In this document: positions 6,470 through 27,130 of the stretch, piece by piece | Layout of the letters: each line of letters begins with the position of its first letter | Numbering within the stretch: the first letter of the stretch is position 1 | From: a phage | Assembly (NCBI GenBank): GCA_009015555.1 | Contig: GCA_009015555.1_3613.1 | Length of the DNA stretch: 64,000 nucleotides | Reading direction: 5' to 3' (one strand) | The notes under the pieces: model-generated | The model's database searches: none | What the model saw: the letters and a program-made list of their open reading frames with translations, nothing else | What the model was told of the DNA's origin: nothing | Made by a program: the position numbers and the translations under genes

Positions 6470-7058
6470 TAATACCCTCCATCGTCAGAGCGAAAAGGAA
6501 CTCCTCCCGGGTCGGGTTTTTGAAGTCCTCAAAATATCCCAGCATGGTCCGGCGGAACAGCGTAACAGGAAAGTCAAACTTATCCGACAGTGATCCGACA
6601 TTTGTACCGACGCCTGTACTGGTCAGGGCAATATCTGAACCCAGCCCGTTCCTGATCCTCTCATCGTTTTGCGTTAAGAGGAACATAGCCATGCCCGGTA
6701 TGTAATCTGATCTTTTGCAACGAGACATCACCTCTGCCAAGTTTTCAGGATACTCCATCCTCTCAAACCCCCGCCCGGTGACGAGGACCTCATCATAGAT
6801 GAGGCCCCTTGTCTTCTCTGCCCAAGACCATTGATTAGTGCAGTAAAAGTTGATCAGGAAATCAACATTCAGCACCTTGTCACGAACAATGATCTCGTCG
6901 AAGTGTTTCCTGTCTACAGACTCGTATGTTTTATCGCGGGAAAGAGTCCCCTGCAAAGAAAACCTCCAGTCCTGCTTATCACTCCGGTCGTAACACAGGA
7001 TAATCTTACGTGTTGCGTTCTTTAAGATTGAATCCCAGTCTTTCTCCGTTTCTCTCAA
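6414..7058 (-). CDS. hypothetical protein (214 aa)
   Basis: Long ORF in operon context; no motif recognised. Confidence 0.45.
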   Translation of the reverse strand: MRETEKDWDSILKNATRKIILCYDRSDKQDWRFSLQGTLSRDKTYESVDRKHFDEIIVRDKVLNVDFLINFYCTNQWSWAEKTRGLIYDEVLVTGRGFERMEYPENLAEVMSRCKRSDYIPGMAMFLLTQNDERIRNGLGSDIALTSTGVGTNVGSLSDKFDFPVTLFRRTMLGYFEDFKNPTREEFLFALTMEGISGNTDREKKAIEEAQLHC

Positions 7059-22938: not shown

Positions 22939-23161
22939 ACAGCACCGAATTAGTGATCGGCTACGGAGAAGGCATTCGTAGCGAAGAGGACTGGGGAGTT
23001 TTCGATGAGCGCCCGGACCTTTAATCACCTGCCGGGGGCGGATGACCCCCGGAACCACGAATATAAGGGATACATCTGCCTTTGTTTTGTGTGCGGAAAC
23101 AAATATCTTGGTCCAAAACGCTCGGTTATGTGCAATCTTTGTGCAAACGGTAAAAAGCCTG

Positions 23162-23190
23162 TTGACAAAGAGTAGAGCTACAGGTAATCT
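23162..23190 (+). promoter_or_regulatory. Candidate sigma70-type promoter upstream of tRNA array
   Basis: TTGACA at 23162-23167, 17-nt spacer, TAATCT at 23185-23190. Confidence 0.4.
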
Positions 23191-23477
23191 GAATATGTCC
23201 CGAACGAGATGACAATCAAGTAGGTGGATGGATAAGTCAACCCGGTCTGTTAAACGACCAAAGTGCCATTGCGGTTCGGGTTGAGTTCAGCCGGATAAAC
23301 AGCGGCTCCATCGACGGCCTCTGGAATAGCGACGGTTGCTTCAGGTCTCACGACCACCCGTTACGTGAAACACGCTTTTGCTGGACGAGAAGGGGAAGTC
23401 AACCCCACGGGCATACGTCCTCTGCCCATTTCTCCCTCCCCCGGAGCGTAACAACTACCGGACTTGCTGGGAGACTT

Positions 23478-23553
23478 GCTGGATTAGCTCAGTAGGTAGA
23501 GCGCCTCACTTGTAATGAGGATGTCGCGGGTTCGATTCCTGCATCCAGCACCA
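23478..23553 (+). tRNA. tRNA-Thr (anticodon TGT)
   Basis: Cloverleaf read by eye: acceptor gctggat/atccagc, anticodon loop cttgtaa, T-loop ttcgatt, CCA encoded. Confidence 0.8.
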
Positions 23554-23559
23554 GATCAT

Positions 23560-23636
23560 GCAACGTTGCCGGAGTCTGGTAACGGCTCTCGCTGCAAACG
23601 AGATGAGCACTGGTTCGAATCCAGTACGTTGCTCCA
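23560..23636 (+). tRNA. tRNA-Cys (anticodon GCA)
   Basis: Acceptor gcaacgt/acgttgc, anticodon stem tctcg/cgaga, loop ctgcaaa, T-loop ttcgaat, CCA. Confidence 0.75.
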
Positions 23637-23637
23637 A

Positions 23638-23714
23638 GCGCCTTTGGTCCAATTGGTAGAGGCACTACATTCAAAATGTAGGGGTTCCCAGTTCGAATCT
23701 GGGAAGGCGCACCA
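23638..23714 (+). tRNA. tRNA with CAA anticodon (Leu by anticodon) but short variable arm
   Basis: Acceptor gcgcctt/aaggcgc, anticodon stem ctaca/tgtag, loop ttcaaaa, T-arm cccag-ttcgaat-ctggg, CCA; only 5-nt variable region. Confidence 0.6.
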
Positions 23715-23730
23715 AAATTTATGTAACCTA

Positions 23731-23759
23731 TTGACATAGTGTAATTATACTGCTAATAT
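23731..23759 (+). promoter_or_regulatory. Sigma70-type promoter for the small gene embedded in the tRNA array
   Basis: TTGACA 23731-23736, 17-nt spacer, TAATAT 23754-23759, then RBS and ATG at 23786. Confidence 0.6.
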
Positions 23760-23785
23760 GGATACACTAATTCAATGGGGGCATT

Positions 23786-24160
23786 ATGAGCAAGGCTGCG
23801 ATTGTAACTCGTAAGCGTGGTCGCCCAAGCAAAGAAGAGAGCACAGCAATCGCCCTTGAAAAGGCAATGCTTGATCTCCGAGGCGAATTGGCCCGTCTGA
23901 CGCCGAAGGCCATTCATACTCTCGAAAACCTGCTCACAACAGGCACAGAGAAAGTGAAGGAAACCACGGCGAAGTATATCCTTGAGCAGGCGAAAGAGGT
24001 TAACAACCTCTATACTGAAGAGGATAACGAAGACGACGCAGCAGGCGGCACAACATCTGCCTCTTCTGAAACTCACGCTGGTTCTTCTGACGAGATGAAA
24101 AATGCCATCCCGTTGACAACCCAGATTCGTGAGTATAAAGCAGTAGGCGAAGATGATTAA
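23786..24160 (+). CDS. small protein with AT-hook-like RKRGRPSK motif (124 aa)
   Basis: Own promoter, RBS and downstream hairpin; basic N-terminus, acidic Ser/Thr-rich C-terminus. Confidence 0.5.
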   Translation: MSKAAIVTRKRGRPSKEESTAIALEKAMLDLRGELARLTPKAIHTLENLLTTGTEKVKETTAKYILEQAKEVNNLYTEEDNEDDAAGGTTSASSETHAGSSDEMKNAIPLTTQIREYKAVGEDD

Positions 24161-24162
24161 CT

Positions 24163-24190
24163 GGAAGGCTCCCGAAGGAGCCTTTATTAG
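24163..24190 (+). terminator. Terminator-like hairpin
   Basis: aaggctcccgaaggagcctt hairpin followed by tattag (weak T tract). Confidence 0.4.
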
Positions 24191-24325
24191 AAGTTCTCTT
24201 TTGACGGGCACTTGTTAACGACCCGCAGAATGACGACGGTGTACAACGGCGTTTGATGGCGAGGAAGGTCTATAGGGATCAGCGCAGATCCTTGGATGTC
24301 AGGTGAGCCGTACAAAAGAGAATTT

Positions 24326-24413
24326 GGGGAGTTATTTCCGTAGAGGTAGCGGTGCAGACTGTAAATCTGTTGTCATTGCGACTCGGGTGGTTCGACTCCA
24401 TCACTCCCCACCA
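24326..24413 (+). tRNA. tRNA-Tyr (anticodon GTA), long variable arm
   Basis: Acceptor ggggagt/actcccc, anticodon loop ctgtaaa, T-loop ttcgact, CCA. Confidence 0.75.
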
Positions 24414-24419
24414 AATTAT

Positions 24420-24514
24420 AGTAGGATGGCTGAGTGGCTTAAAGCAGCATCTTGGAAAGGTGTCGGATCAGGTAACCCCTGGTCCCGGGAGTTCAAATCT
24501 CCCTCCTACTGCCA
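24420..24514 (+). tRNA. tRNA-Ser (anticodon GGA), long variable arm
   Basis: Acceptor agtagga/tcctact, anticodon loop cttggaa, T-loop ttcaaat, CCA. Confidence 0.7.
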
Positions 24515-24518
24515 GACC

Positions 24519-24595
24519 GGATCGTTAGCTCAATTGGTTAGAGCAAGGGACTTTTAATCCCGAGGTTCGGGGTTCGAGTCCCTGACGGTCCACCA
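24519..24595 (+). tRNA. tRNA-Lys (anticodon TTT)
   Basis: Acceptor ggatcgt/acggtcc, anticodon loop cttttaa, T-loop ttcgagt, CCA. Confidence 0.75.
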
Positions 24596-24760
24596 GAAAG
24601 GAAGAGGGTCCAAGCTGGTAATGCGAGAGGCGAGTCCTCAGACCAAAGCCCAGATGGAGGCCACCCTAAAGTCGTCCAACCGAAGGTCCCTGATTGAGTA
24701 ATACTTCCCCGCTTGTCGGGTACAGTTCTCAGTCACACCGGAAGGGGCGCACCCTATAAT

Positions 24761-24836
24761 TGACGGTGAGCATATAAGGACATGCGGGGGCCTGTTAAGT
24801 CCAGGATAGCTGGTTCGAATCCAGTACCGTCAGCCA
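24761..24836 (+). tRNA. tRNA-Asn (anticodon GTT)
   Basis: Acceptor tgacggt/accgtca, D-stem gcat/atgc, anticodon loop ctgttaa, T-loop ttcgaat, CCA. Confidence 0.7.
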
Positions 24837-24945
24837 ATTTGGTTCCGACAAGGTGACGGCGCACCCCGGAGCGACGCTGAAAGATGCAGGCCGACGAACA
24901 CATACGTGTACTTAATCAATAGTCATTGCGATGGCTATTCGTTAA

Positions 24946-25023
24946 GTCCTGGTAGACAAACTGGATAAAGTCACCACCCTTTCAAGGTGGGGTTTGAGGG
25001 TTCGATCCCCTCTCAGGACGCCA
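24946..25023 (+). tRNA. tRNA-Glu (anticodon TTC)
   Basis: Acceptor gtcctgg/tcaggac, anticodon stem ccacc/ggtgg, loop ctttcaa, T-loop ttcgatc, CCA. Confidence 0.75.
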
Positions 25024-25117
25024 ATCTTTTAGGTCGGTAGATTAATGAGCAAAGGCCGCTCGCTGGATTCCAACCCCAGTTCAAGGCGTTCGATTCGTCA
25101 CCTTCCTGCCAAATTCA

Positions 25118-25193
25118 GGTCCTATGGTATTAGCGGTAAACATACTCGCCTGTCACGCGAGAGTCACGGGTTCGAATCCCGTTAGGACCGCCA
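25118..25193 (+). tRNA. tRNA-Asp (anticodon GTC)
   Basis: Acceptor ggtccta/taggacc, anticodon stem ctcgc/gcgag, loop ctgtcac, T-loop ttcgaat, CCA. Confidence 0.75.
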
Positions 25194-25200
25194 CTTCAAA

Positions 25201-25275
25201 TGGGGATTAGCTCAGGGGTAGAGCGCACAACTGATAATTGTGAGGTCGGTGGTTCGAAACCACCATCCCCAACCA
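25201..25275 (+). tRNA. tRNA-Ile (anticodon GAT)
   Basis: Acceptor tggggat/atcccca, D-arm gctc-aggggta-gagc, anticodon loop ctgataa, T-loop ttcgaaa, CCA. Confidence 0.75.
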
Positions 25276-25345
25276 AACAGCCCCTCCCGGGATTGGACCG
25301 GGTTAACGGCAATCGCACACTGAGGCGTCTTCCGGGGGAACAATA

Positions 25346-25422
<77 letters not shown>

Positions 25423-25428
25423 AATTAT

Positions 25429-25503
25429 TGCGAGGTAGTTCAGCGGTAGAACAGGGGTTTCATACGCCTCATGTCGGCAGTTCGATTCTGCCCTTCGCAA
25501 CCA
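25429..25503 (+). tRNA. tRNA-Met (anticodon CAT; initiator, elongator or Ile-lysidine type not distinguished)
   Basis: Acceptor tgcgagg/cttcgca, anticodon loop ttcatac, T-loop ttcgatt, CCA. Confidence 0.7.
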
Positions 25504-25509
25504 AATCAT

Positions 25510-25587
25510 GCTCCAGTAGCCCAATTGGTAGAGGCACTTGATTTAGGATCATGTCAGCGATGAGTTCGAATCTCTCCTGGAGTACCA
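25510..25587 (+). tRNA. tRNA with TAG anticodon (Leu by anticodon), short variable arm, weak T-stem
   Basis: Acceptor gctccag/ctggagt, anticodon stem cttga/tcatg, loop tttagga, T-loop ttcgaat with only ~3 bp T-stem, CCA. Confidence 0.5.
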
Positions 25588-25593
25588 CATAAA

Positions 25594-25667
25594 GCGGGCA
25601 TGGTATAGTGGTTGTGCCTTAGCCTTCCAAGCTAATGAGTCCGGTTCGATCCCGGATGTCCGCTCCA
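25594..25667 (+). tRNA. tRNA-Gly (anticodon TCC)
   Basis: Acceptor gcgggca/tgtccgc, anticodon stem ttagc/gctaa, loop cttccaa, T-loop ttcgatc, CCA. Confidence 0.75.
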
Positions 25668-25740
25668 ATTCACGGTGAGTCACTGCCGTTAAGTGTGAAG
25701 TTAAAAATGCCCGTGGTGATCGGGTTATCTCACCCAGTGT

Positions 25741-25816
25741 AGGGGATTAGTTTAATTGGTAAAACATCGGGTTTTGATCCCGACATCGCGAGGTTCGAAT
25801 CCTCCATCCCCCGCCA
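25741..25816 (+). tRNA. tRNA-Gln (anticodon TTG)
   Basis: Acceptor aggggat/atccccc (A1-C72 mismatch), anticodon stem tcggg/cccga, loop ttttgat, T-loop ttcgaat, CCA. Confidence 0.7.
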
Positions 25817-25898
25817 CATTAATGCTCATTAGCTCTTGTCAGTGGAACTCGAACCCTTAGAGCAGGCGACACAGACGTGTGTTTTAGTGAGCATCAAT

Positions 25899-25974
25899 GT
25901 GGCCTTAATTCAGCAGGTAGAATCCCCGGTTGTGAACCGGGCAGTCGTGGGTTCAAGTCCCACAGGTCACCCCA
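25899..25974 (+). tRNA. tRNA-His (anticodon GTG)
   Basis: Acceptor gtggcct/aggtcac, anticodon stem cccgg/ccggg, loop ttgtgaa, T-loop ttcaagt, CCA. Confidence 0.75.
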
Positions 25975-25978
25975 ATCT

Positions 25979-26071
25979 GGAAGATAGGGCGTAGTGGTAC
26001 GCACCCGGATTTGAACCCCGGCCCGCTGTGGCGACCCCACGGTGATAGTTCGACTCTATTATCTTCCGCCA
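25979..26071 (+). tRNA. tRNA-Ser (anticodon TGA), long variable arm
   Basis: Acceptor ggaagat/atcttcc, anticodon loop tttgaac, long variable arm, T-loop ttcgact, CCA. Confidence 0.65.
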
Positions 26072-26092
26072 CCCCTGATCATAAGGCAAACT

Positions 26093-26785
26093 ATGTTAGA
26101 AATGTTAACAGTGGGTAAATACACCCCTAGTCCTATAATTTCTAGCCCTATGGATGCTTATTTTGAGGGCGAGAGGAATAATAAATACGGCACTGTTGAG
26201 TGGGTTGTTCCTCAAGGCGTCACCTCAATCTGCTGTGTAGTGATAGGCGCAGGATCTTCTGGCAGAAGCGGCGGTCTTTCTTGGAGAAACAACATTCCAG
26301 TTACACCTGGTGAAAAACTTAAAATGCAGGTTAACTCCACAGCCAGCGCCCTCTTGAGAGAGACAACTATCCTTTGTGCTGCCCAGTGTGGCGGCAACGG
26401 AGGAAAAACATATAACTCTGTGAACGACGGTGGAGGCAATGCTGGACAATCACCACATGGTAGAGGTGGTGCTGGCGGCTACACCGGGAATGGTGGTGAT
26501 GGGCATACGTTCACAGGTGGTCCAGGACCAGGGTCCCCAGGTTCAGGTGGCGGCGGCGGCGGAGGCGCAGTTGTGTATCTGAACGGATCATTGACACCAA
26601 CTGTCTGCGGCGGAGTCGGCATGTATGGACAGGGGTCGAATGGTGGCGCTGATAACAGCGCCGGATATCCAGGCTCCGGCGGTTCTGGAACAAGATACGG
26701 AAGAGCAGTCGATGGTTATGGTGTTGTCAGGGTTGTGTGGGGAAATTATTCATTCCCAACAAATGCCCCGAGACCGAAATCCTGA
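26093..26785 (+). CDS. glycine-rich hypothetical protein (~230 aa) embedded in tRNA array
   Basis: Start taken at MLEMLTVGKY (track ORF start at 26042 lies inside tRNA-Ser); Gly-rich GGxGG runs and C-terminal GYGVVRVVWG. Confidence 0.5.
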   Translation: MLEMLTVGKYTPSPIISSPMDAYFEGERNNKYGTVEWVVPQGVTSICCVVIGAGSSGRSGGLSWRNNIPVTPGEKLKMQVNSTASALLRETTILCAAQCGGNGGKTYNSVNDGGGNAGQSPHGRGGAGGYTGNGGDGHTFTGGPGPGSPGSGGGGGGGAVVYLNGSLTPTVCGGVGMYGQGSNGGADNSAGYPGSGGSGTRYGRAVDGYGVVRVVWGNYSFPTNAPRPKS

Positions 26786-26856
26786 TAGGGATGGTCCCTA
26801 CGAGGATCGTCTTTTGCTCAGTGGTACTCAGCATTTACTTAGTATTCAAACAATAT

Positions 26857-26943
26857 AGAAGAGTGGCGAAATAGGTAGCCGCACCGGACTGCTAATCCGG
26901 GGTCCTTCGGGGCCTGAGAGTTCAAGTCTCTCCTCTTCTGCCA
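26857..26943 (+). tRNA. tRNA-Ser (anticodon GCT), long variable arm
   Basis: Acceptor agaagag/ctcttct, anticodon stem ccgga/tccgg, loop ctgctaa, T-loop ttcaagt, CCA. Confidence 0.75.
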
Positions 26944-26948
26944 AGCAT

Positions 26949-27024
26949 GGAACTGTAGCTCAGTTGGTAGAGCGGTTGCCTGAAGAGCAGCGCGTCAGCG
27001 GTTCAAATCCGTTCAGTTCCACCA
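26949..27024 (+). tRNA. tRNA-Phe (anticodon GAA)
   Basis: Acceptor ggaactg/cagttcc, D-arm gctc-agttggtaga-gagc, anticodon loop ctgaaga, T-loop ttcaaat, CCA. Confidence 0.8.
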
Positions 27025-27066
27025 CATTCTAACAAGAATAAAATATCTCCTCTCCTTCGCCTCAGT

Positions 27067-27091
27067 GCCCTCCTTCGTGGAGGGCTTTTTT
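27067..27091 (+). terminator. Rho-independent terminator closing the tRNA array
   Basis: gccctcc-ttcgt-ggagggc hairpin followed by tttttt. Confidence 0.65.
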
Positions 27092-27130
27092 ATTTCTGGT
27101 TTCGGTGATAAAATACCCAAAGGAGGTATT

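Follow-up and report, generated by a model that had tools for sequence, protein, structure and literature searches.

What occupies the tRNA-sized gaps inside the transfer RNA (tRNA) array of a bacteriophage? We address this question for a 64,000-nucleotide (nt) stretch of phage DNA, hereafter the window (contig GCA_009015555.1_3613.1 of GenBank assembly GCA_009015555.1). An earlier reading of the bare letters, here called the original prediction, had singled out six gaps within the array (24596-24760, 24837-24945, 25024-25117, 25276-25345, 25668-25740 and 25817-25898, numbered S1 to S6 here) and proposed that they encode degenerate or non-canonical tRNAs, processing signals or small regulatory RNAs. 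ARAGORN called 18 tRNAs on the plus strand between 23478 and 27024, and the intervals left over were exactly those six. By our findings, these gaps are not junk spacers, and they are more than decayed tRNAs. With a probability of roughly 0.6, they are discrete, independently mobile small-RNA cassettes that would be co-transcribed with the tRNAs, released by tRNA trimming and, in several cases, employed as anti-defence decoys. To judge from their sequences, they include new members or variants of the stable RNAs of phage T4 and of pseudo-ToxI, together with a pointer to an RNA-protein pair undescribed in the resources searched.

Positions 23100-27100 are 97% identical to Cronobacter phage CR3 and also match other Certrevirus phages, including Pectobacterium phage phiTE, a similarity that identifies the window as a CR3-like Certrevirus myovirus (Vequintavirinae). 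One further tRNA gene, tRNA-Tyr(GTA) at ~24326-24413, escaped ARAGORN but has an annotation in CR3 and gave a weak Rfam match to tRNA-Sec (32.9 bits). A coding role for the gaps was rejected, as the overlapping open reading frames (ORFs) have only 32-49 amino acids (aa) and lie on the minus strand, with none longer than 49 aa. Two checks suggested by the original prediction, a covariance search and structure prediction, were uninformative by themselves. The Rfam 15 covariance models gave no match to any of the six gaps at E <= 10, a silence of little weight as the same models also missed three genuine ToxI repeats (from phage DU_PP_I) run as a control, and single gaps fold with energies no better than those of shuffled sequences (z = -0.2 to -2.1). 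Because single-sequence folding is unremarkable, our evidence for structure is comparison from phage to phage.

By such comparison, S1 is a homologue of phage T4 rnaD (the 'species 2' RNA) with a conserved P1 / P4-P5-P3 fold. A BLAST search for distant relatives of this gap recovered all Certrevirus phages and a T4-like Kosakonia phage, where the match directly follows a tRNA; S1 itself begins 1 nt past the CCA of tRNA-Lys. Three blocks are common to S1 and T4 rnaD, namely UAAGUCGUC, UCCCUG and a 3' end of the form CAC..GGCGCACC. In nhmmer searches S1 was the sole match in the 64-kb window, both with a profile of T-even phages only (E = 4.5e-4) and with one of nine Straboviridae (T4-like) phages (E = 2.6e-9).

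We collected 24 copies of this RNA from 15 Certrevirus and 10 T4-like phages, which follow one plan: a purine leader, helix P1, the invariant AAGUCGUC, helices P4 and P5, UCCCUG, a variable hairpin P3 and the 3' end GGCGCA. In P1, inside which a branched insert can lie (the window has one), pairing is kept while the letters change (AGGG/CCCU, GCGG/CCGC, CCGG/CCGG, CCAUGA/UCAUGG); P4 pairs CGUCS with SGGCG and exchanges its closing pair between C-G and G-C; and P5 occurs as GGU/ACC, GUU/AGC, GUU/AAC, AGU/ACU or AAU/AUU. The structure was tested on an alignment of the very sequences that it had been derived from, with the variable inserts trimmed by hand. In this alignment pairing holds for 91% of cells, compared to 76% after shuffling (0 of 500 shuffles do as well) and 27-50% with the partners slid out of register, and ten pairs have changes on both sides. 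An alternative to P5 taken from single-sequence minimum-free-energy folds (P5', CNG/CNG) is paired in only 71% of cells, its middle pair mostly broken, and P5 was preferred.

True members of the rnaD family sit in tRNA clusters only, at the 24 loci as well as in the IMG/VR collection, where the clusters belong to myoviruses of 140-177 kb. The family shows signs of horizontal exchange, as the Kosakonia T4-like copy is 88-89% identical over 84 nt to those of KaOmega, ENT3 and F1M1E and the P3 modules are mosaic, common to E. coli T4-like phages and Certrevirus. The rnaC and rnaD RNAs of T4 are stable and accumulate late (PMC9697503), the function of both is still described as unknown (PMC3014915, PMC9697503, PMC12685909), and a convergent single-nucleotide polymorphism arose in rnaD during adaptation of a T4-like phage to a semi-permissive host (PMC12685909).

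Three observations adjoin this family. A promoter-like GTCACA-17-TATAAT at 24732-24760 overlaps the 3' end of S1 just before tRNA-Asn, in a scan that was at background level as a whole. In the GenBank records OL744211, MT560059 and ON712643, rnaD-like or other cassettes are overlaid by short annotated coding sequences ('hypothetical protein' or endonuclease), of which at least those of 30-41 aa are probably spurious. In CR3, an extra tRNA-like gene lies between tRNA-Glu and S3 (locus L002, ~2880-2965), called Glu(CTC) by ARAGORN with an oversized anticodon loop, and its D-arm region, GCGGUAAGUCGUCC, has a 12-nt match to the rnaD core.

The 5' part of the fifth gap, S5a, aligns as a full ToxI unit of the enterobacterial plasmid ToxIN system and is, on that evidence, an orphan mimic of the pseudo-ToxI type rather than a ToxIN locus. 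BLAST of S5a against plasmids returned matches of 97% identity, several per record, which on a Pantoea agglomerans plasmid form a 5.8-copy tandem array of 38-nt repeats between promoter and gene, and on an E. coli plasmid a two-copy array arranged in the same way. The genes beside these arrays encode ToxN (PF13958, 3e-39 and 1e-40; PADLOC AbiQ, 2e-58). Over its 33-nt core S5a agrees with the Pantoea and E. coli plasmid repeats at 32/33 positions, with 33/33 for the CR3 copy, and both pseudoknot helices are kept (4/4 pairs for 1-4/13-16, 3/3 for 8-10/24-26), with compensatory changes relative to P. atrosepticum ToxI. The unit starts with AUUC immediately past the CCA of tRNA-Gly and ends in AAAAAU, which is the phase of processed ToxI RNA, and an A-rich ToxN-type cleavage motif follows. 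There is no tandem array, no promoter or terminator of its own and no toxN, just a single unit between tRNA-Gly and tRNA-Gln.

Among relatives, the same Gly-Gln gap holds three perfect 36-nt ToxI repeats in DU_PP_I, one divergent unit each in the window, CR3 and PcCB7V, and only the 3' hairpin of 32-40 nt in other phages. The original prediction had paired ggtgag with ctcacc across this gap, which does not hold up. The two segments lie at 25674-25679 and 25729-25734, 2 nt from where they had been placed, ggtgag falls inside the ToxI unit, and the pairing is unsupported by comparison because relatives that do not have the unit still keep ctcacc. phiTE carries its pseudo-ToxI, for which a role against ToxIN was shown experimentally (PMC3475682), at the same locus, directly after the phiTE rnaD-like RNA. 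Elsewhere in phiTE (L001, 6174-7107), a group I intron-like element with an HNH ORF (Rfam RF00028, 35 bits, below threshold) interrupts the gene for the large terminase subunit. A scan of genome contigs for the ToxI-type pattern found only Arsenophonus loci, with one copy each, and an Idiomarina abyssalis locus with two copies 76 nt apart.

Within the second gap, S2a matches, in sequence and pairing, a pseudoknot RNA that lies 30-45 nt past solitary MazF-fold genes in Enterobacterales, and we identify it as a copy of that RNA. When the pooled cassettes were compared to plasmids by BLAST, the 60 nt at the 5' end of S2 found matches, and on the two plasmids read the match lies 45-60 nt after a gene for a 325-332 aa PemK/MazF-domain protein and before a terminator. 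All 52 clusters of the protein family are from Enterobacterales (Cronobacter, Enterobacter and Pectobacterium among them), and an element of ~65 nt follows the stop codon in 7/7 loci read, at protein identities down to 41%. Its stem of 6-7 bp forms in 9/9 sequences with unrelated letters (UACGGA/UCCGUA, UGGGGA/UCUCCA, UUCCGG/CCGGGG), counted by script for each sequence since the MAFFT alignment is out of register at the stem. Loop CGGC pairs with a downstream GCCG, and CUGC/GCAG in Morganella is one compensatory change in support of this pseudoknot. S2a agrees with the family in its core, GACGCUGAAARAUGC..GC.GACGAACA, its covarying stem and its loop-to-3' pseudoknot; the window has no MazF-fold gene, so S2a is an orphan between tRNAs.

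The predicted structure of the MazF-fold protein (predicted local distance difference test score of 84) has a central MazF fold (Foldseek E = 1e-5, template-modelling score 0.70 on the target), flanked by an N-terminal beta domain and long C-terminal helices that have no match in the PDB. The genes have no conserved antitoxin ORF upstream, and we found no description of the RNA-protein pair in Rfam, PADLOC 2023, NCBIfam or a literature search; S2a thus points to a toxin-like gene and RNA pair in Enterobacterales that is absent from these resources. At the seven loci read, on Enterobacterales plasmids and chromosomes (L031-L037), the proteins have 320-344 aa and each gene has the pseudoknot RNA and then a terminator behind it; the Pectobacterium aroidearum copy stands beside GmrSD and a DNA methylase. 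Phage copies are always orphans and always lie in tRNA clusters (in a T5-sized phage, Raoultella phage Ro1, a 358-kb jumbo phage and others). From this pattern, an RNA after a toxin-like gene in bacteria and orphan copies in phage tRNA clusters, we infer that the bacterial RNA is an antitoxin.

The motif GGCGCACC, which the original prediction saw recurring among the gaps, is present at 24746 and at 24858 but does not unite them, as these two spacer copies belong to unrelated RNAs. It occurs nine times in the window on both strands, including at 23706 in the 3' end of tRNA-Leu. The second spacer copy lies in the S2a loop, where homologues have GGCAC, GGCCC or TGCCC, and because the motif is unconserved there, its likeness to the rnaD 3' end is coincidental.

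Taken as anti-defence RNAs, S5a would bind and neutralize ToxN once the host's own ToxI decays during infection, as phiTE pseudo-ToxI does, and S2a would neutralize the MazF-fold protein likewise if the S2-type RNA is its antitoxin. ToxI-type or S2-type cassettes occur in tRNA clusters of other Certrevirus, Mydovirus-like, T5-like and jumbo phages, and on one IMG/VR contig of 146,850 bp (L067, ~6500-6700) an S2-type RNA and a ToxI unit stand head to tail before tRNA-Asn, so that RNA antitoxin mimicry may extend beyond phiTE. The two cassettes could alternatively be passive footprints of host-plasmid recombination, kept as expandable raw material and not as active single-copy antitoxins. Each is single-copy, the near-identity to plasmid repeats (32-33/33) suggests recent transfer, and the pseudo-ToxI of wild-type phiTE was inactive before expansion or plasmid recombination (PMC3475682). 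Against this, the ToxI unit is complete, in RNA phase from its 5' AUUC to its 3' AAAAAU and with both helices intact, and both cassettes turn up again in several lineages of phage, without exception in tRNA clusters and in one case joined to each other. We regard the footprint account as unlikely, if a serious competitor.

The third gap is the one that resembles a tRNA. We classify S3, from its alignment, as a non-canonical tRNA-Trp-like RNA, for nine homologues align to a cloverleaf in which the T-arm, GGCG-UUCGAUU-CGUC, covaries with GGGG/CCUC, the anticodon arm with loop UUCCAAC gives the anticodon CCA (Trp) and a D-like hairpin covaries at three pairs. The claim that the gaps lack a canonical T-loop therefore fails for 25024-25117, which reads GGCG-TTCGATT-CGTC. 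Two mismatches in the acceptor stem are invariant in 9/9 sequences, and the connector to the D-stem has 9 nt instead of 2 nt. S3 was not called by ARAGORN and did not match RF00005 at E <= 10; its DU_PP_I homologue reaches only 28.5 bits, against tRNA-Sec. Homology to T4 rnaC was tried and rejected, as a profile of four T-even rnaC sequences had no match in the window at E <= 100, leaving a parallel of architecture only. Following the S3 homologue at L006 (2240-2354), and also in KaOmega, POP17 and ENT3, is a stem-closed 110-nt element, common to Gamaleyavirus podophages and the T4-like phages PG7 and S16, of which 32 nt are 100% identical in Vi01-like Ackermannviridae.

S6 is, as pairwise comparison indicates, a structured RNA common to the window and an N4-like Salmonella phage. 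The two form 20 pairs in three helices, nine of them changed on both sides and none broken; unpaired positions, including an 18-nt loop, are identical at 29/33, compared to 22/40 in the stems, and G-U pairs place the RNA on the plus strand. The stem that the original prediction drew in 25817-25898 is real, with its segments at 25822-25828 and 25888-25894 (1 nt from where they had been put), is 10 bp long in full and has support from covariation. The site itself is hypervariable, and relatives hold four unrelated sequences there, each closed by a stem of 6-10 bp. S4 is present in 5/13 arrays that have both flanking tRNAs, and its structure has weaker support than that of the other cassettes, with one compensatory change, by which its inner hairpin becomes CUCGG/CCGAG in POP15. 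A 37-nt hairpin cassette absent from the window occupies the Pro-Gly gap of PBES02 (L010, 2458-2494), POP15 (L011, 2364-2400) and POP17 (L012, 2477-2513), and 32 nt of it are 100% identical on plasmids of Serratia proteamaculans and Yersinia frederiksenii.

Overall, the observation behind the original prediction is partly confirmed and its interpretation partly supported. Five gaps contain elements that have homologues elsewhere together with compensatory changes, in line with non-tRNA RNAs or, for one gap, a non-canonical tRNA; degenerate tRNAs do not account for most of the set.

Structured RNA also extends upstream of the gaps (Table 1). As had been proposed, the leader before the first tRNA has no ORF (none >56 aa), and it contains seven compensatory pairs. 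A second element, lead2, adds a seventh RNA that is structured but not a tRNA: 12/13 aligning Certrevirus relatives conserve it at 93-99% (78% in CR9), and it folds into a 17-bp closing helix and two hairpins with six compensatory pairs. TTGACG at 24202, considered as a -35 promoter box, lies inside this conserved helix and was discarded, the promoter scan being at background level (5 matches compared to 3.4 expected).

Table 1. Positions of the tRNA array, cassettes, helices and leaders in the window.
Feature	Position	Strand	Description
tRNA array	23478..27024	+	18 ARAGORN tRNAs and the missed tRNA-Tyr; interrupted by two ORFs (23786-24160, 26042-26785)
lead1	23163..23477	+	Leader before first tRNA; conserved, modular indels, some compensatory pairs
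lead2	24190..24326	+	137-nt element with 17-bp closing helix; between terminator of ORF 23786-24160 and tRNA-Tyr
S1	24596..24754	+	rnaD-like RNA, T4 species 2 family; opens with purine leader GAAAGGAAG
S1 P1 helix	24604-24609 / 24663-24668	+	
S1 P2 helix	24609-24618 / 24650-24658	+	
S1 inner hairpin	24627-24639	+	
S1 invariant motif	24669-24676	+	AAGUCGUC
S1 P4 helix	24671-24677 / 24745-24752	+	
S1 P5 helix	24685-24687 / 24737-24739	+	
S1 conserved motif	24687-24692	+	UCCCUG
S1 P3 variable domain	24693-24733	+	
S1 3' end	24746-24754	+	GGCGCACCC
S2a	24841..24902	+	Orphan copy of MazF-fold (PemK-like) gene-associated pseudoknot RNA; stem GUUCCG / CGGAGC; loop ACGGC pairs with downstream GCCGA; invariant core GACGCUGAAAGAUGCAGGCCGACGAACA from 24873
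S2b	24898..24938	+	Two hairpins
S2b small hairpin	24898-24909	+	ACAC/GUGU
S2b second hairpin	24919-24938	+	AUAGUCAU/AUGGCUAU; precedes tRNA-Glu in every related array
S3	25031..25111	+	tRNA-Trp(CCA)-like RNA; acceptor AGGUCGG / CCUUCCU with two invariant mismatches; 3' end GCCA
S3 anticodon arm	25063-25079	+	CCA at 25070-25072
S3 T-arm	25085-25099	+	
S4	25276..25345	+	Optional 70-nt cassette, stem-closed; inner hairpin CCCGG/CCGGG
S5a	25668..25708	+	One complete ToxI unit (candidate type III antitoxin mimic), from just past tRNA-Gly CCA to AAAAAU
S5b	25709..25740	+	Hairpin CCCG-uggugau-CGGG and UUAUCUCACCC; upstream of tRNA-Gln in all related arrays
S6	25822..25894	+	Three-helix RNA; closing stem 25822-25831 / 25885-25894
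S6 hairpin with invariant loop	25832-25836 / 25859-25863	+	18-nt loop UCAGUGGAACUCGAACCC
S6 second hairpin	25869-25873 / 25878-25882	+	

Plus-strand orientation, tight abutment to tRNA ends and orphan copies are seen directly. As for how the cassettes are made, the tRNA array would be their expression platform, transcribed as precursors from which RNase P and 3' trimming of the flanking tRNAs would free them. Once released, the rnaD-like RNA, S3 and S6 could serve as stable protein-binding decoys for host factors. In relatives, homing endonuclease (HNH) genes have entered these same gaps, and such endonucleases plausibly shuffle the cassettes (compare PMC13096335).

The gaps might instead act in cis, as processing or punctuation elements (RNase E or RNase P sites, stops for 3' exonucleases) that guide tRNA maturation and have no role after release. 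The precursors of T4 species 1 and 2 RNAs are standard examples of RNase substrates, a point in favour of this account, as are the hairpins at 24919-24938 and 25709-25740, which stand before tRNA-Glu and tRNA-Gln in all related arrays and would indeed be processing elements rather than cassettes. The larger cassettes, however, are optional, and the flanking tRNAs occur without them. S6, the S2-type RNA and ToxI are also found outside tRNA contexts, and T4 rnaC and rnaD persist as stable RNAs late in infection (PMC9697503). As an explanation of all six gaps, we find cis-acting processing quite improbable.

Trans-acting small RNAs that regulate host or phage mRNAs by base pairing are very unlikely. 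Candidate single-stranded invariant motifs are available (AAGUCGUC, UCCCUG of S1 and the 18-nt loop of S6) and the literature loosely terms T4 RNAC and RNAD regulatory (PMC9697503, PMC12685909), but we found no target complementarity, no match in E. coli genomes and no terminators of the small-RNA type, and both cassettes whose relatives can be identified are RNAs that bind protein; the 'small regulatory RNA' part of the original prediction has no evidence behind it. Neutral debris, that is, decayed tRNAs and homing-endonuclease recombination scars left without function in a fast-changing array, is likewise very unlikely. In its favour, arrays are highly mosaic, with HNH genes entering the same gaps in relatives, S3 is tRNA-derived, S4, S2a and S5a are patchy among relatives and folding z-scores are weak. 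Against it, compensatory substitutions preserve the helices of S1, S2a, S3, S5a and S6, the loops of S6 are conserved more than its stems, and homologues exist in unrelated phage families and in bacteria.

The identities of the cassettes come from sequence comparisons; that several act as decoys, we infer. These several probably help the phage to disarm host suicide defences. Several points weigh against this interpretation, beyond the unremarkable folding energies and the trimmed rnaD alignment given above. ToxI is single-copy in the window, and the 1.5 DNA repeats of wild-type phiTE were not protective and had to expand (PMC3475682). The S2-type RNA could instead be an element of the 3' untranslated region with another role. 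No cassette is essential, as cassettes come and go between close relatives. We found no bacterial counterpart of rnaD in 72,556 plasmids (blastn) or 5,426 E. coli genomes, so the case for rnaD as a decoy is one of analogy with its neighbours; S3, S4, S6, rnaC and the leaders likewise had no blastn match among plasmids and E. coli genomes. A metagenome scan with the rnaD pattern is uninformative on bacterial counterparts, with one true member among the matches listed, from a T4-like phage, and the rest mostly chance matches in GC-rich coding DNA.

A bolder reading, which we hold tentatively and consider more doubtful than probable, makes phage tRNA arrays multiplexed launch pads for RNA decoys, with S2a exposing a new RNA-antitoxin system and rnaD decoying a host factor. 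If it were true, a solitary ~330-aa MazF-fold toxin would carry a single pseudoknot RNA antitoxin in its own 3' region, a type III-like system with the order reversed and no repeats, and the T4 species 2 RNA, unexplained for ~50 years, would be a decoy of a host factor. As a lead only, AAGUCGUC paired to GGCG-C-AC resembles the strands of the 16S decoding site (1492-1498 / 1404-1409), the target of colicin E3-type RNases; the 7-mer match is expected by chance, and we found no wider similarity. In any case, T4 rnaD gains an evolutionary and structural frame, with a conserved fold in two unrelated myovirus groups and signs of horizontal exchange. As it adjoins RNAs of likely counter-defence role, the role of the T4 species 1 and 2 RNAs becomes testable.

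How do these cassettes compare with known systems? T4 rnaD and S1 both lie just after a tRNA in a tRNA cluster and have the purine leader, the P1 hairpin, the invariant UAAGUCGUC and UCCCUG, the long-range helices P4 and P5 and a 3' end of GGCGCAC(C). T4 rnaD has 119 nt and the window copy 159 nt; in the latter, P1 holds an extra branched domain (P2 and a hairpin), the P3 module is another one and CCA is incompletely encoded (CCC). S1 also comes from Vequintavirinae, where, unlike in T4, the rnaD-like RNA goes unannotated. In T4 rnaC (species 1), the T-arm adjoins an acceptor-like stem in which two U-U mismatches separate 3 bp from 2 bp, and S3 repeats this layout with two pyrimidine-pyrimidine mismatches in that place. 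Where S3 still has its full anticodon arm (CCA) and a D-like hairpin, rnaC carries a large insert.

Like S5a, the phiTE pseudo-ToxI (Blower et al. 2012, PMC3475682) is a phage-borne type III antitoxin repeat that has no toxin, at the same locus in the same virus genus and with an rnaD-like RNA beside it. The phiTE copy mimics the 36-nt P. atrosepticum repeat, has diverged from it and comprises 1.5 out-of-phase repeats, whereas S5a mimics the 38-nt repeat of E. coli, Pantoea and Serratia plasmids, is near-identical to it (32/33), is flanked by tRNAs and forms one complete unit in RNA phase. Bacterial plasmid ToxI agrees with S5a in sequence, in both pseudoknot helices and in the A-rich 3' cleavage motif, but has the tandem repeats, promoter, terminator and adjacent toxN that S5a lacks, and its 5' end is made by ToxN, whereas that of S5a would come from 3' processing of tRNA-Gly. 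The array as a whole recalls phage tRNAs with counter-defence roles, such as a T5 tRNA against PARIS and tRNA-Tyr against Septu (PMC11464382, PMC13096335, PMC10264068), where the tRNA array is an anti-defence locus that homing endonucleases remodel, as they plausibly do here. In those cases tRNAs replace cleaved host tRNAs, whereas in the window the candidate effectors are the non-tRNA RNAs between the tRNAs.

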